A stretch of 32,000 bases of DNA from Labrenzia sp. CE80 (GTDB taxonomy: Bacteria > Pseudomonadota > Alphaproteobacteria > Rhizobiales > Stappiaceae), in the NCBI RefSeq assembly GCF_009650605.1, contig NZ_WAJT01000001.1:1449441-1481440 (forward strand). The letters run 5' to 3'. A program made the position numbers and the translations under genes. The notes under the pieces were generated by a model. That model was not told the DNA's origin. It made no database searches and was given only the letters and a program-made list of their open reading frames with translations. Below, piece after piece: positions 16,018 through 19,642 of the stretch (its first letter is position 1; every line of letters begins with the position of its first letter).

Positions 16018-16323
16018 TCAAGGCGGATTGAGAGGCTTCACAGCGCCGGGCGGTGTCCATGTGTGCGGGTGGATAGTGATCGTGCCGCCGCGCTTGCCGT
16101 ATCTGGGACAGCGTGCATTCTGGCACACGAGAGCCGAAGAGATGCGCTTGTCGTTGATCACCACGTGATCGGGACCGAATTGACAGATCAGTGCGTCGAG
16201 GTCGAGCAACCGACTGCCGCAATGCGGATTGAGGCAGTGAGCACGAATCGAATGGCGGGTCGCCTTGAGGCCTGCAAGTGTCGAAAGATCGGCGGTCGGT
16301 CTATTGCGGGTCATCGCCAGCAT
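16018..16323 (-). CDS. Small zinc-ribbon hypothetical protein; last gene before the prophage end
   Basis: 101 aa with paired C-x4-C motifs (HCLNPHC ... CQNARC). ATG start with AAGGG upstream, 36 nt downstream of the TIR gene stop. It resembles the small Cys-pair proteins common in Rhizobiales genomes (recalled architecture, no family name). Confidence 0.55.
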   Translation of the reverse strand: MLAMTRNRPTADLSTLAGLKATRHSIRAHCLNPHCGSRLLDLDALICQFGPDHVVINDKRISSALVCQNARCPRYGKRGGTITIHPHTWTPPGAVKPLNPP

Positions 16324-16359
16324 CGCCCTTTCTCAGTCACGAGAGAAGGGCTCCTCGGG

Positions 16360-18330
16360 CTAGAAGAACTTCAAGAGTAATTCTAGGAGCTGCTCCATTC
16401 GCAGGAGAAAAGTTTTGGCAGCTTCTGGGCTTGTCATCAAGTTGATAGTGGTACCAGACAAGAGCGTCACTGCGGTGGCCGCAACACCAGCCAAGCCCTT
16501 CAACGCCCACCGCCAGTATTTGAATCGCGCTGTTTCTGTTTTCTCACCTAGGTTACCAGCGCGGCTTAGACCAGCCTTCAGATCATCATTTCTGGCGTCC
16601 AGAAAGTCCAGTATCTCTGGCGTGGCAGCCTCTTGAATAGCTGGGTCTTCAACCAAGCCACTCACGGCTTCGGAAACCTTTCTAATCTGGTCATCGGATG
16701 CAGCACCTAATTTTATCTCAGGTGAGATTTCAGGTTGCTGCAGGCCATTTCCTGAACGGCGTATGGGCTTCAGATACGGTTTGAGTTCTGCTGTGCGTTC
16801 TAGAAGCTTTACGGCAAGCTTATCTATTCCGCGCCAATCAGAATCTATCTCTTCGTCCAGGCGTGTCGAAATTGTGAAAGCAATGTCTTCCCACTTTCGC
16901 CATGCCCGGCACTTGGTTTTGGCAAAGTGCTTACACTCCCGAACACAATCAAGAATGACACCAGAGACGTTGGGAGTGAGTTTGGGCCATTGATCGCAAA
17001 ACCGCTTCGCGAGCGTTTCAATCGCCTCAAAGATCTCATTTTCATCGGTCGGATCGTATTCAGCTGGACGTCCGTCTGGGGGCGTGTCGGTGATACCCAC
17101 GCGCCCATCTTCAACGATGGCTGATCCTGACCCAGCATTAGCCAATCGGTGGATCAATTCGCTCCGCGACGGCGGAAACAAGCGATCCTTCAACACATGT
17201 ATCAGCTTTTGCCAACGGGGATCGCTTGTGTCTCCGTCCCACCCCACCAAGCTTTGGTATTGGGTTTCAGCAAAGCCATAGGGCAGAGCGGCATCATCCA
17301 GACGGGCATGAACCAGTTTTCCGTCATTTTGAGCAGTTGACGCTTCTTCCCGAACCGCATCCGACTTTGTACTGTTTTCTGTCCAGACAGTCAGAACGAT
17401 ATCGGCGTCCCCCAGGTTGGTTTCAATAGTTGCACGCCAACTCGCCCCTGCGGGTATGTCCTGGTCCCAGAAGCAGCTAATTTGTTCTGCAAGCAATTTT
17501 TCTCTTAAGCCTGCAATCTCTGCGCGATCAGCGCTCGAATAGGATAGGAAAACAAACGGCTCCTCTATGTCGCCTTGTGGCACGGCCGCGGCGTCATCTA
17601 AAAGCTCTTCTCTTGGATCTTCGGCCTCTGGCGCGTCCTCATCTTCGCTCCACACCGGCCAATGCTCGGGATGGATCAGGCCATCCGGAAGCAGCACCCC
17701 CGTATCGCCGCGCATGGAGTTGATTTGGCTCTGCATCAGGTTGTGTGCGGATGTAAAATCGACCCTGCCGGTTTTTTCTGTGCTCCGGGCCGATTGTAAT
17801 GATCTGATATCCGCTCTCCACAGGTTCGCGTTCAACAGTTTCGCCCCCTTCAGGTCCGCCTCCCGAAGGTCTGCGCCCCACAGGTTCGCCCCCTGCAGGT
17901 CCGCCCCCTGCAGGTCCGCCTCCTGCAGGTCCGCCTCCTGCAGTTCCGCCCACTGCAGTTTCGCTCCCTTCAGTCTCGCCCCCTTCAGGTCCACCTCTTT
18001 CAAGTCGGCCCTCTTCAGGTCCGCCTGCTTCATGTCGACCTCTTTCAGCTCGGCCCTCTTCAGGTTCGCCCCCTGCAGGTCCGCCTCCCGAAGGTCTGCG
18101 CCCCACAGTTTCGCCCCCTGCAGGTCCGCCCGCCGCAGGTCCGCCCGCTGCAGTTTCGCCCGCTGCAATTTGGCCCGCTGCAGTTGCGCCTTCTTCAGGT
18201 CCGCCTTCTTCAGGTTCGCTTCCTGAAGGTCCGCCTGCTGCAGGTCAGGTAAGAACAGTGACTTATTGCGGCGCTCATTCCACGCGACAACACCTTGTTT
18301 AAGCCATCTCAAATGTCGCCAGCTTGCCAC
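16360..18330 (-). CDS. Pentapeptide-repeat / TIR-domain / C-terminal helical-domain fusion protein (656 aa)
   Basis: GTG start with a GGAGAG SD. Residues 1-27 are WLKQGVVAWNERR, a typical pentapeptide-repeat N-cap. Residues ~28-175 are about 30 A(D/N)LxX repeats. Residues ~258-385 are a TIR domain (FVFLSYSSADRAEIAGLREKLLAEQISCFWDQDIPAGASWRATIETNLGDADIVLTVWTENSTKSDAVREEA...LVHARLDDAALPYGF). Residues ~400-656 are helical, with a hydrophobic segment ALKGLAGVAATAVTLLSGTTINL. Confidence 0.85.
   Translation of the reverse strand: MASWRHLRWLKQGVVAWNERRNKSLFLPDLQQADLQEANLKKADLKKAQLQRAKLQRAKLQRADLRRADLQGAKLWGADLREADLQGANLKRAELKEVDMKQADLKRADLKEVDLKGARLKGAKLQWAELQEADLQEADLQGADLQGANLWGADLREADLKGAKLLNANLWRADIRSLQSARSTEKTGRVDFTSAHNLMQSQINSMRGDTGVLLPDGLIHPEHWPVWSEDEDAPEAEDPREELLDDAAAVPQGDIEEPFVFLSYSSADRAEIAGLREKLLAEQISCFWDQDIPAGASWRATIETNLGDADIVLTVWTENSTKSDAVREEASTAQNDGKLVHARLDDAALPYGFAETQYQSLVGWDGDTSDPRWQKLIHVLKDRLFPPSRSELIHRLANAGSGSAIVEDGRVGITDTPPDGRPAEYDPTDENEIFEAIETLAKRFCDQWPKLTPNVSGVILDCVRECKHFAKTKCRAWRKWEDIAFTISTRLDEEIDSDWRGIDKLAVKLLERTAELKPYLKPIRRSGNGLQQPEISPEIKLGAASDDQIRKVSEAVSGLVEDPAIQEAATPEILDFLDARNDDLKAGLSRAGNLGEKTETARFKYWRWALKGLAGVAATAVTLLSGTTINLMTSPEAAKTFLLRMEQLLELLLKFF
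17806..18249. repeat. 15-bp-periodic coding repeat array (pentapeptide repeats) with an internal 55-bp near-perfect duplication
   Basis: Reiterated CAGGTCCGCC / CAGGTTCGCC units every 15 bp. 17851-17905 and 18076-18130 are identical except for 1 nt (33 + 21 nt exact), spaced 225 bp apart, which equals 15 repeat units. Confidence 0.9.
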
Positions 18331-18362
18331 TCATCTCTCCGATGTCGTCAGTCACCCTGACA

Positions 18363-18587
18363 CTAGGAAATACAATCTAGAGAGGCAACGACTTCGGGCC
18401 GTCCTGCCAGGGTGATGGAGCCAGATCCGGTCGCCCGGCCGAGCTTCTCGCCTTCGGTGTAGCTCGACACGCAAAACTGGAATGTTTGACGCAGTGAAAT
18501 TAGCCATTCACCATCCGTTTTCAGGCATTGGTGTCGATGCGACCGCGCTTTTTGAACAGCGCTTGAAGGCCCTTCAAACCTTGTCAA
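18363..18587 (-). CDS. Doubtful small ORF (74 aa) between the methyltransferase and the TIR gene
   Basis: It fills the gap between the dam stop (18625) and the TIR gene start (18330) on the same strand. However, it starts with TTG, has no clear SD, and no family was recognised. Confidence 0.25.
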   Translation of the reverse strand: MTRFEGPSSAVQKARSHRHQCLKTDGEWLISLRQTFQFCVSSYTEGEKLGRATGSGSITLAGRPEVVASLDCIS

Positions 18588-18624
18588 ATCGCTATTTAAA
18601 GCGCAAACTGAGGGCTTTCAGAAC

Positions 18625-19446
18625 TCAGTTCGAGATGATCAACTCCGTCACTCGTTTGGAAGAGTTGCGATCGGCGGAATAGGTGACGCTCACTTCTTCC
18701 ATTTCAAAACCAGAAAAGATGGCCCTGATTTCAGGGGTATCGTTGATGGACAGGAGGCAGCGACCTTTTATCGATCGCAGCTGCACGGCGAGCTTTTCAA
18801 AGTCCTCCCCACAAAAAATGCCTTTCCCATAGTAGGTCTCGCAATCCCAATAGGGTGGGTCGAGATAAAAGAGCGTCTCGGGCTTGTCGTATCTTGTGAT
18901 GCAGTCCCCGTAAGTTTGCCGTTCGATGATCACGCCCGATAGCCGCTCGTGAACGTCTTCAAGCAACGGTACGACCCGTGTCAGATCAAAGCGGCTGCCA
19001 CGGGTCATGTCGACGCCAAAGCCTCGGCCGTTGACTTTCCCCGCAAAAGAAATGCGTTGCAGATAAAGAAACCGGGCCGCCCGTTCCAGGTCGGTCAGGG
19101 TTTCCGGATCGGTCTTCAAGAGACGTTCAAACTCGGATCGGCTGGTCAGCTGGAACCGCAGCACTTCTAAGAACTGAGGATAATGGCGCTGCAAGATCCT
19201 GAAGAGCGTGACTATGTCTCCGGAGATATCATTGATCACCTCGCATTTCGCGCGGAATGGTCTTCTCAGGAAGACGCCTCCCATGCCGACAAAAGGTTCA
19301 ACATAGATACTGTGCGGGATCGGCCTGATCCTATCTGACAGCCGCTTCGCAAGCCGGTTCTTGCCACCGATATAGGGCGCTACCGGCACAACCGGGTTGA
19401 TCGGTTCAAACTGATTTTGTGCGTTGGCTTTTGTCGGTGAGGTCAT
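18625..19446 (-). CDS. Orphan Dam-class (D12, alpha-group) N6-adenine DNA methyltransferase
   Basis: APYIGGKNRLAKRL N-terminal motif, the FVGMGGVF (FxGxG) SAM motif, and the catalytic DPPY in FYLDPPYWD. There is an AGGAG SD 8 nt upstream of the ATG. No restriction endonuclease partner is present in the window. Confidence 0.9.
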   Translation of the reverse strand: MTSPTKANAQNQFEPINPVVPVAPYIGGKNRLAKRLSDRIRPIPHSIYVEPFVGMGGVFLRRPFRAKCEVINDISGDIVTLFRILQRHYPQFLEVLRFQLTSRSEFERLLKTDPETLTDLERAARFLYLQRISFAGKVNGRGFGVDMTRGSRFDLTRVVPLLEDVHERLSGVIIERQTYGDCITRYDKPETLFYLDPPYWDCETYYGKGIFCGEDFEKLAVQLRSIKGRCLLSINDTPEIRAIFSGFEMEEVSVTYSADRNSSKRVTELIISN

Positions 19447-19642
19447 TTGTATGCTCCTGGTCTTCGCGCTCTTGGCGATGGTTCAGGGGCTCAAAGGGCC
19501 TCAGATGATTGAGTGTGCCGCATCGTCGGCACTTGATCTGGATATCGTTGGCGATGGCGCCTTGTCCAGCCTTGAATAAGAGTGCGTTGCAACTACCGCA
19601 TCGAATGTGCTGCATATCAACCTTGAAGAGAATCACCGACAC
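19406..19642 (-). CDS. com: Mu Com-like zinc-finger protein (translational activator family)
   Basis: MQHIRCGSCNALLFKAGQGAIANDIQIKCRRCGTLNHL matches the Com signature IRCxxCNxLLFKA...IxIKCxRC. The likely start is the second Met at 19615. The 3' end overlaps the methyltransferase start by 41 nt. Confidence 0.8.
   Translation of the reverse strand: MSVILFKVDMQHIRCGSCNALLFKAGQGAIANDIQIKCRRCGTLNHLRPFEPLNHRQEREDQEHTNDLTDKSQRTKSV

Follow-up and report, generated by a model that had tools for sequence, protein, structure and literature searches.

The region examined here lies in a 32,000-nucleotide (nt) window of the genome of the marine bacterium Labrenzia sp. CE80 (Roseibium/Labrenzia; contig NZ_WAJT01000001.1), and all coordinates are positions in this window. 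It extends from the last conserved structural gene of a Mu-like prophage, which encodes a DUF2793 tail-associated protein, to a host glutaminase gene that is interrupted by the prophage (Table 1). Four minus-strand genes occupy this slot: com, encoding a translational regulator of the Mu Com type, dam, encoding an orphan DNA methyltransferase, a gene for a protein that combines pentapeptide repeats, a TIR domain and a C-terminal helical domain (hereafter TIR gene and TIR protein), and znr101, encoding a small zinc-ribbon protein. Genes for a Mu Gp36-type adaptor and a Mu G-like head-tail protein and a gene transfer agent (GTA)-type tail module are located upstream, and Pfam also detected GTA_TIM/Phage-tail_3 in the flanking genes. 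Together with the Mu-type ends described below, these genes bear out the earlier assignment of the element as Mu-like. Probably, the region is the accessory slot at the right end of a transposable prophage that resembles RcapMu and possesses a Mu-type head, Mu-type ends and a GTA-type tail.

A first-pass annotation of this DNA had described five minus-strand open reading frames (ORFs) with short gaps as one co-directional cassette. Its coordinates, strand and gaps are exact, including the 41-nt overlap of com and dam and the gaps of 37, 32 and 36 nt, all of which the ORF list reproduces, but the single five-gene cassette did not hold up, since a decayed phage end splits the block. The third ORF, ORF74, sits on this relic end; therefore the block, as judged from its sequence, is composed of four genes in two modules. 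Read from the structural genes towards the host, the layout is DUF2793, com, dam and the decayed type-2 end at 18458, then a 127-nt spacer, the TIR gene, znr101 and the intact type-1 end at 15965, and finally host DNA. The spacer shows no likeness to any fetched locus and may hold a promoter of the TIR gene. No sigma-70 consensus match was found in it, and the scan for promoters and terminators gave nothing beyond shuffle expectation.

Table 1. Features of the right-end slot and its borders (window coordinates; aa, amino acids)
Feature	Position	Strand	Size	Remarks
DUF2793 tail-associated gene	19765..20490	-		PF10983; last conserved structural gene, left boundary of the variable slot
Module A	18458-19642			com, overlapping orphan D12 Dam methylase, relic type-2 end
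com, Mu Com-type zinc-ribbon translational regulator	19406..19642	-	78 aa	PF10122, 53.1 bits (cut-off 22.9)
dam, orphan D12-class (Dam family) N6-adenine DNA methyltransferase	18625..19446	-	273 aa	PF02086, 70 bits (cut-off 22)
Relic type-2 Mu-type right end	18458..18624	-		terminates ...CATTCCAGTTTTGCGTGTCGAGCTACA at 18458
ORF74, spurious	18363..18587	-	74 aa	overlies the relic type-2 end
Module B	15965-18457			pentapeptide-repeat-TIR-helical-domain gene, small zinc-ribbon gene, intact type-1 end
Unique spacer	18331..18457	-	127 nt	upstream of the TIR gene
TIR gene, pentapeptide-repeat-TIR-C-terminal-helical-domain protein	16360..18330	-	656 aa	Pfam Pentapeptide and TIR_2
znr101, CxxxxC...CxxxxC zinc-ribbon protein	16018..16323	-	101 aa	last gene before the type-1 end
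Intact type-1 Mu-type right end (attR)	15965..16017	-		terminus ...TTGCGCGCTACA
5' fragment of the host glutaminase gene	15674..15964	+		truncated by the prophage insertion

For comparison, 80 loci were fetched with DUF2793 as the anchor, which provided 16 related prophages with a mapped right end in addition to the window (loci are given by L numbers). The phage terminus at 15965, which had already been proposed, was confirmed by its terminal sequence, its repeats and the interrupted glutaminase gene. TGTAGCGCGC begins at this position. The Pfam Glutaminase match covers only positions 1-55 of the 286 positions of the profile, and its frame reads ...T-I-Q-S before it meets the phage end. Within the end, two perfect 18-bp direct repeats (GCCAAGTGAACTTGCGCG) are located at 15970-15987 and 15992-16009, and these are presumed to be transposase-binding sites. 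The chance expectation for matches to such an 18-bp repeat is 0.07 according to shuffled sequences, and none of 100 shuffles yielded two. The same end is kept in ten loci (L004, L007, L010, L012, L013, L016, L022, L046, L083 and L085), each with two sites and the terminal TTGCGCGCTACA; the likeness halts exactly at CTACA, and the flanks beyond are unrelated. The annotated attR of RcapMu ends in CGCGCGCTACA, a terminus identical to that of the window. The terminus at 15965 is thus recognizable as a genuine Mu-type right end, named type 1. In IMG/VR, the type-1 end pattern had a sole match, the unrelated contig L085. None of the at least 120 homologues listed for the RcapMu transposase was on the CE80 contig, and no nucleotide likeness to sequenced phages was found. 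A tRNA-Gln(CTG) gene is located at 15331-15404, approximately 270 nt upstream of the interrupted glutaminase ORF and 560 nt before the phage end. The phage is not integrated in this gene, which fits transposition and not tRNA-targeted integration.

The second right end lies between dam and the TIR gene, where the first-pass annotation had placed ORF74. This ORF is not borne out as a gene. It had no match in Pfam, PADLOC, PHROGs or NCBIfam, and its weak tblastn matches landed on the extreme ends of other prophages, where the frame is broken. The relic end underneath corresponds in alignments to the last ~165 nt of a second right-end family, type 2 (...GAAAATTCCAGTTCGC...AACATTCCAGTTTTGGGTGGCGAGCTACA), which forms the conserved non-coding junction of prophage and host in L005, L006, L011, L014, L071, L075 and L084, with the likeness again halting at CTACA. 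In the copy of the window 48 nt are missing, among them the inner GAAAATTCCAGTT site, and two substitutions occur in the terminal 26 nt. Both end types show a terminal ...CA, repeated sites, conservation that stops at the junction and differing host flanks. The block therefore harbors two different Mu-type right ends in tandem, each of which is a true prophage/host junction in relatives. The mirror case occurs in L084, where a znr101 homologue and a single-site type-1 relic (CCACA) are enclosed in an intact type-2 end. In the window as well as in L084, decay has struck the inner end and spared the outer one.

Smaller duplications of the right terminus were also observed. L046 carries three ends in tandem (6880-7020; ends at 6941, 6994 and 7016), the terminal 14 nt are duplicated in L010 (12070-12104), and the terminal 10 nt are duplicated in L005 (12975-13010). 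These duplications may be scars of insertions near the end or of repair, and they indicate that right ends are often rearranged in this phage group.

No family in Pfam, PADLOC, PHROGs or NCBIfam was matched by znr101, the gene next to the type-1 end. The search for homologues yielded just two, in L083 (63% identity) and in P0019/L084 (74% identity). In all three occurrences the gene is the last one before a type-1 end and has different upstream neighbors each time, which links it to the type-1 terminus and not to the TIR gene. A two-gene system of TIR and zinc-ribbon proteins was considered and rejected, because nowhere else were the two genes found together.

The slot between DUF2793 and the end had been suspected to be a variable cargo hotspot, and the relatives agree with this. 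In the 16 related prophages DUF2793 and the end are 1.3 to 6.2 kb apart, the contents differ, and there is clearly no common set of conserved genes that all of them carry at this position. Where com is present (11 relatives), a DNA methylase invariably comes next, and its class is D12 Dam (L008/L009, as in the window), C5 (L004, L006, L007, L010, L014, L016 and L046) or N6_N4 (L012 and L083). The defense contents of the slot include a type XI retron reverse transcriptase (RT)-protease in L005 (PADLOC 3.8e-174), an AbiJ-like protein in L071/L075, an HNH nuclease in L013, a restriction-modification-like pair of a HATPase protein and a C5 methylase in L012, and restriction endonuclease-like genes. 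Other cargo comprises AAA_18 and glyoxalase-like genes in L084, an old yellow enzyme (OYE) reductase with an S-adenosylmethionine (SAM) methyltransferase in L011, and a LuxR/LuxI pair in L022. The TIR gene was found in none of the slots of the 16 relatives.

Some of these cargo genes deserve separate mention. The RT-protease gene of L005 (10964-12607) is complete and resides in a Roseibium prophage whose DUF2793 is 92% identical to that of the window. The quorum-sensing pair of L022 (13133-14606; Autoind_bind and GerE, Autoind_synth) belongs to a Mu-like prophage of Nitratireductor soli. The type-1 phages L083 (12432-13181) and L085 (7388-8284) share a membrane-type protein as end-proximal cargo, with the motif ...EFGDFLAG... 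in L083 and ...ELGDFLAG... in L085. It belongs to no Pfam family, and PADLOC gave no match for the L083 copy and a weak match to JetA (E = 0.0067) for the L085 copy. A minus-strand ORF of 637 aa in the slot of a Chelativorans prophage (L016, 12043-13956), without a match in Pfam or PADLOC, could be an unknown cargo gene or a spurious GC-rich ORF.

The com and dam genes are located at the position of mom in phage Mu, with no nuclease beside the methylase, as had been noted before. Besides its Pfam match, Com was assigned to PHROG 6417 ("translational regulator", 1e-14), and in 11 related loci com directly follows DUF2793 and includes the N-terminal VSxILFKV extension. The methylase matches MTase_II in PADLOC (1.6e-64) and PHROG 56 (5.8e-80), and its translation contains PFVGMGG and DPPY, corresponding to the FxGxG and DPPY motifs. 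Its score against TIGR00571 (93.6 bits) is below the cut-off of 114.85, which indicates a member of the Dam family but not an equivalog of E. coli Dam. As no nuclease gene accompanies it, the enzyme is regarded as an orphan, which fits an anti-restriction role. The start of dam is positioned 41 nt inside com, and its Shine-Dalgarno sequence and AUG are predicted to be paired in a hairpin (z = -2.5 and -3.0). A stem that uses the conserved GAGCCC codons of com recurs at other com-methylase junctions, where most of the z-scores lack significance. Activation of dam translation by Com may reasonably be inferred.

The TIR protein consists of 30 uninterrupted pentapeptide units (aa 29-178; PF00805, 152.9 bits), a TIR_2 domain (aa 260-368; 66.6 bits, cut-off 28) and a conserved helical C-terminal domain of 286 aa (aa 371-656), which ends in a helix of borderline hydrophobicity. 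AlphaFold gave confident predictions, the full-length protein with a mean predicted local distance difference test (pLDDT) value of 83, and residues 250-656 with 88 and a predicted template modeling (pTM) score of 0.83. In Foldseek searches against the PDB only the TIR part was matched, to the TIR domains of AbTir, SARM1, SPARTA TIR-APAZ and TLR, with a probability of 1.0 for AbTir, SARM1 and SPARTA. The C-terminal helical domain had no structural match in PDB or BFVD. A sequence search of the PDB with the TIR region alone gave nothing, and the search with the family profile was swamped by matches to pentapeptide and leucine-rich repeat (LRR) proteins and reached AbTir only across the first half of the TIR domain. 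Two glutamates, E328 and E329 in the motif AVREEA, are invariant in 10 family members and are located at a predicted helix that follows the strand at 311-316.

The TIR family is rare and uncharacterized. The protein has about ten close homologues, and its C-terminal domain is represented by only 59 clusters among 1.84 billion proteins. In the 54 representatives that were scanned, TIR_2 was found in 34, and the N-terminal domain was a pentapeptide domain in 26, an LRR domain in four and Clp_N in three. The TIR domain and the C-terminal domain are conserved, whereas the domain in front of them is swapped. Phage records were matched through the pentapeptide repeats only. The NCBIfam system models were missed by far (Retron_TIR 22.6 versus 600, ThcB4 21.4 versus 220), and no partner genes of Thoeris, retron-TIR, CBASS TIR-SAVED or SPARTA were found in the window or beside the homologues. 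Two further ORFs, 17567-18226 (plus strand, 219 aa) and 17639-18106 (minus strand, 155 aa), overlap the pentapeptide coding sequence on the opposite strand or in another frame; they result from the repeats and are not genes.

A second arrangement of this kind is present in another Roseibium genome (L001), where the final ~45 codons of a C5 methylase gene of the com-associated kind are followed by an intact homologue of the TIR gene, a one-site type-1 end (CTATA) and a host tRNA gene. No other phage genes are located near this homologue. This indicates that the TIR gene has been right-end cargo of type-1 phages at least twice, and that it stayed intact in L001 while the phage decayed. A relic of a type-2 end upstream of the L001 homologue was also considered, and it was rejected because the alignment showed no similarity.

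The reading we favor, and consider probable, is that two cargo modules are stacked end to end in the right-end slot of a hybrid prophage. A type-2 phage would have inserted itself by transposition close upstream of the TIR gene of a resident type-1 prophage, and recombination between homologous structural genes would have left one hybrid prophage bounded by type-1 ends. The hybrid would use the outer type-1 end and mobilize both modules, and the inner type-2 end would decay. In module A, Com would activate translation of the methylase late in infection, as in com-mom of Mu, by relieving the predicted hairpin around the dam start, and methylation would shield the phage DNA against restriction. 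For module B, the balance tips slightly towards a prophage-borne factor for abortive infection or superinfection exclusion. The variable N-terminal repeat domain of the TIR protein, here a 30-unit pentapeptide beta-helix, would be the sensor, the TIR domain with its invariant Glu-Glu pair would degrade NAD+ as the effector, and the conserved C-terminal domain would mediate assembly or membrane association. The defense role had been suggested in the first-pass annotation. It is supported by association, because known defense genes fill the same slot in relatives, but the protein matched no curated defense system.

Several observations weigh against this reading. The active right end was judged solely by which end looks intact, and the left end is outside the window. 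A hairpin with z < -2 was obtained at only three of 11 com-methylase junctions. The putative equivalence of E328/E329 to the catalytic glutamate of TIR NADases follows from motif position and family invariance and not from a residue-level superposition, and the hydrophobicity of the C-terminal helix is borderline (19-residue Kyte-Doolittle maximum 1.44-1.69). TIR-level matches of the protein in PADLOC are weak (2.8e-4 and 9.7e-3). Its chromosomal homologues are stand-alone genes without conserved neighbors, located among housekeeping genes and not in defense islands.

Whether the whole block can be mobilized depends on which right end is active. Conceivably, the resident is a type-2 phage that has its true end at 18458 and was inserted into an older type-1 prophage, and the TIR gene, znr101 and the type-1 end are what is left of the tip of that prophage and are no longer mobilized with the resident; the older phage may have decayed, or what remains of it may be located past the left end. 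Remnants of this kind do exist: in L001 a methylase fragment, the TIR gene and an end relic are all that is left, and in L084 znr101 and a type-1 relic persist inside the end of another phage. Moreover, the binding sites of type 1 and type 2 are too different for one transposase obviously to use both. However, were the outer piece an old relic, decay should be seen in the outer end and not in the inner one, which is the opposite of what was found in the window and in L084, and the outer end of the window retains both sites in perfect form and directly borders a host gene that is cleanly interrupted. For this reason the hybrid prophage is favored, and a leftover tip appears rather unlikely. The two explanations differ in what they predict for the left end. 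In a hybrid prophage it would be an inverted type-1 end (TGTAGCGCGCAAGTTCACTTGGC...) next to the 3' portion of the interrupted glutaminase gene, with AGTCC duplicated (5 bp), and all four genes would be mobilized. In the case of a leftover tip, a type-2 left end (TGTAGCTCGCCACCCAAAACTGGAAT...) would be flanked by further genes of the type-1 phage.

A different function of the TIR protein was also considered. It might not be directed against phages but act as an effector or NAD-metabolic toxin against a eukaryotic host or competitors, like BtpA/TcpB, or be a housekeeping signaling protein that is carried by chance. Roseibium species are often associated with eukaryotes, which was counted in favor of this explanation. 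The pentapeptide repeats resemble those of the effectors PipB and PipB2 at the domain level, the chromosomal homologues are neighbors of housekeeping genes, and non-defense cargo such as the LuxR/LuxI pair and the OYE reductase occurs in the slot as well. However, neither a secretion signal nor a secretion-system neighborhood was seen, and the slot of the relatives is dominated by defense and modification genes. In addition, the swapping of N-terminal repeats before a fixed TIR domain is a pattern described for immune sensors, and pentapeptide repeats appear among the sensor repeats in the account given in PMC7159879. A role outside phage defense is thus considered improbable, and an abortive-infection or exclusion factor remains the preferred interpretation of the TIR gene.

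The higher AT content of the block, which had been estimated by eye, was confirmed by computation. The GC content is 0.554, compared to 0.622 for the structural genes, whose lowest 3.8-kb window reaches 0.608, and it is close to that of the host flank (0.564). Although this uniformly low GC content, the common strand and the short gaps would suit acquisition and expression of com, dam, ORF74, the TIR gene and znr101 as one unit, such a cassette is highly improbable, as ORF74 overlies a phage terminus that is conserved as non-coding DNA and its own frame is not kept, and as com and dam occur without the TIR gene or znr101 in L008/L009, the TIR gene without com, dam or znr101 in L001, and znr101 without the TIR gene in L083 and L084.

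Two further features of the window concern neighboring genes. On the host side, a minus-strand ORF (13233-15020) carries a low-complexity N-terminal extension of ~250 aa rich in Arg, Lys, Pro, Gly and Ala, with a local GC content of up to 0.68; judged by eye, the remainder of the protein may be a Ppx/GppA-type phosphatase. On the phage side, the listed NlpC/P60 ORF (24440-25033) overlaps the upstream hub gene (24889-25773) by 145 nt. Its true start is probably further downstream, because the homologue in L084 has 150 aa.

These results identify a right-end hotspot for defense and cargo genes in GTA-tailed Mu-like prophages of marine Alphaproteobacteria, and they nominate a rare, compact TIR family as a candidate for single-gene defense with exchangeable repeat "sensor" domains. 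Relic ends inside functional ends provide physical evidence for how transposable phages may acquire and shuffle cargo. What is novel are variations on known kinds, namely the TIR family and the stacked ends, whereas the com-dam part had been described before. As a tentative and rather doubtful extension, both variations could be generalized together. Pentapeptide/LRR-TIR-helical proteins would form a new family of single-gene abortive-infection factors, in which a DNA-mimicking beta-helix baits DNA-binding proteins of phages and switches on the NADase. Mu-like phages would enlarge the slot by "end stacking", in which a phage lands in the end region of another, recombination captures whole right-end segments behind a new functional end, and the internal ends decay.

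The TIR protein shares a TIR_2 domain with a conserved acidic residue, the fusion to a presumed sensor module and carriage on a mobile element beside other defense genes with the TIR anti-phage systems Thoeris ThsB, retron-TIR, TIR-SAVED, SPARTA TIR-APAZ and STAND/AVAST-TIR. Unlike these, it is neither fused to nor accompanied by ThsA, reverse transcriptase, SAVED, Argonaute or a STAND NTPase, the presumed sensor is a beta-helix of pentapeptide repeats, and it possesses the family-specific C-terminal helical domain of 286 aa. In Qnr and MfpA, the pentapeptide beta-helix is a DNA-mimicking fold. The likeness of the TIR protein to these proteins is confined to the pentapeptide fold, as the family-level scores fail (Qnr 57 versus 240, MfpA 61.7 versus 360).

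The com-dam module follows a published pattern, since com and a non-Mom adenine methylase at the position of mom, with putative Com target structures, have been described for FluMu, Pnme1 and Hia5 (Drozdz et al. 2012, PMC3299994). The window and its relatives add examples with D12, C5 and N6_N4 methylases. As in Mu com-mom and in the FluMu, Pnme1 and Hia5 operons, a Com zinc-ribbon gene at the right end of a Mu-like element is followed and overlapped by a modification gene, which has no nuclease partner and whose start is predicted to lie in a hairpin. In contrast to Mu, the enzyme is a D12 methylase of the Dam family and not Mom, which produces acetamido-adenine, in agreement with the published non-Mom variants (PMC3299994). 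The module also differs from the published com operons in that what follows it is not the genome end but a relic phage end and then another cargo module.

RcapMu (NC_016165), a Mu-like siphovirus of Rhodobacter capsulatus, shares the Mu-type head and connector genes, the siphovirus tail module and the attR terminus with repeated sites. However, it carries no com, methylase or other cargo between the last tail gene and attR, and it has tail-tip genes of another kind than the GTA g15/DUF2793 type of the window.

The variable loci of P2 and P4 are prophage defense hotspots, in which unrelated defense genes interchange at a fixed position of temperate phages among close relatives. The slot described here has the fixed position and the replacement of unrelated defense genes among close relatives in common with them. 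Unlike the P2/P4 loci, it abuts the transposition end of a Mu-like phage, and at least part of its growth appears to result from the stacking of whole right-end segments, relic ends included.

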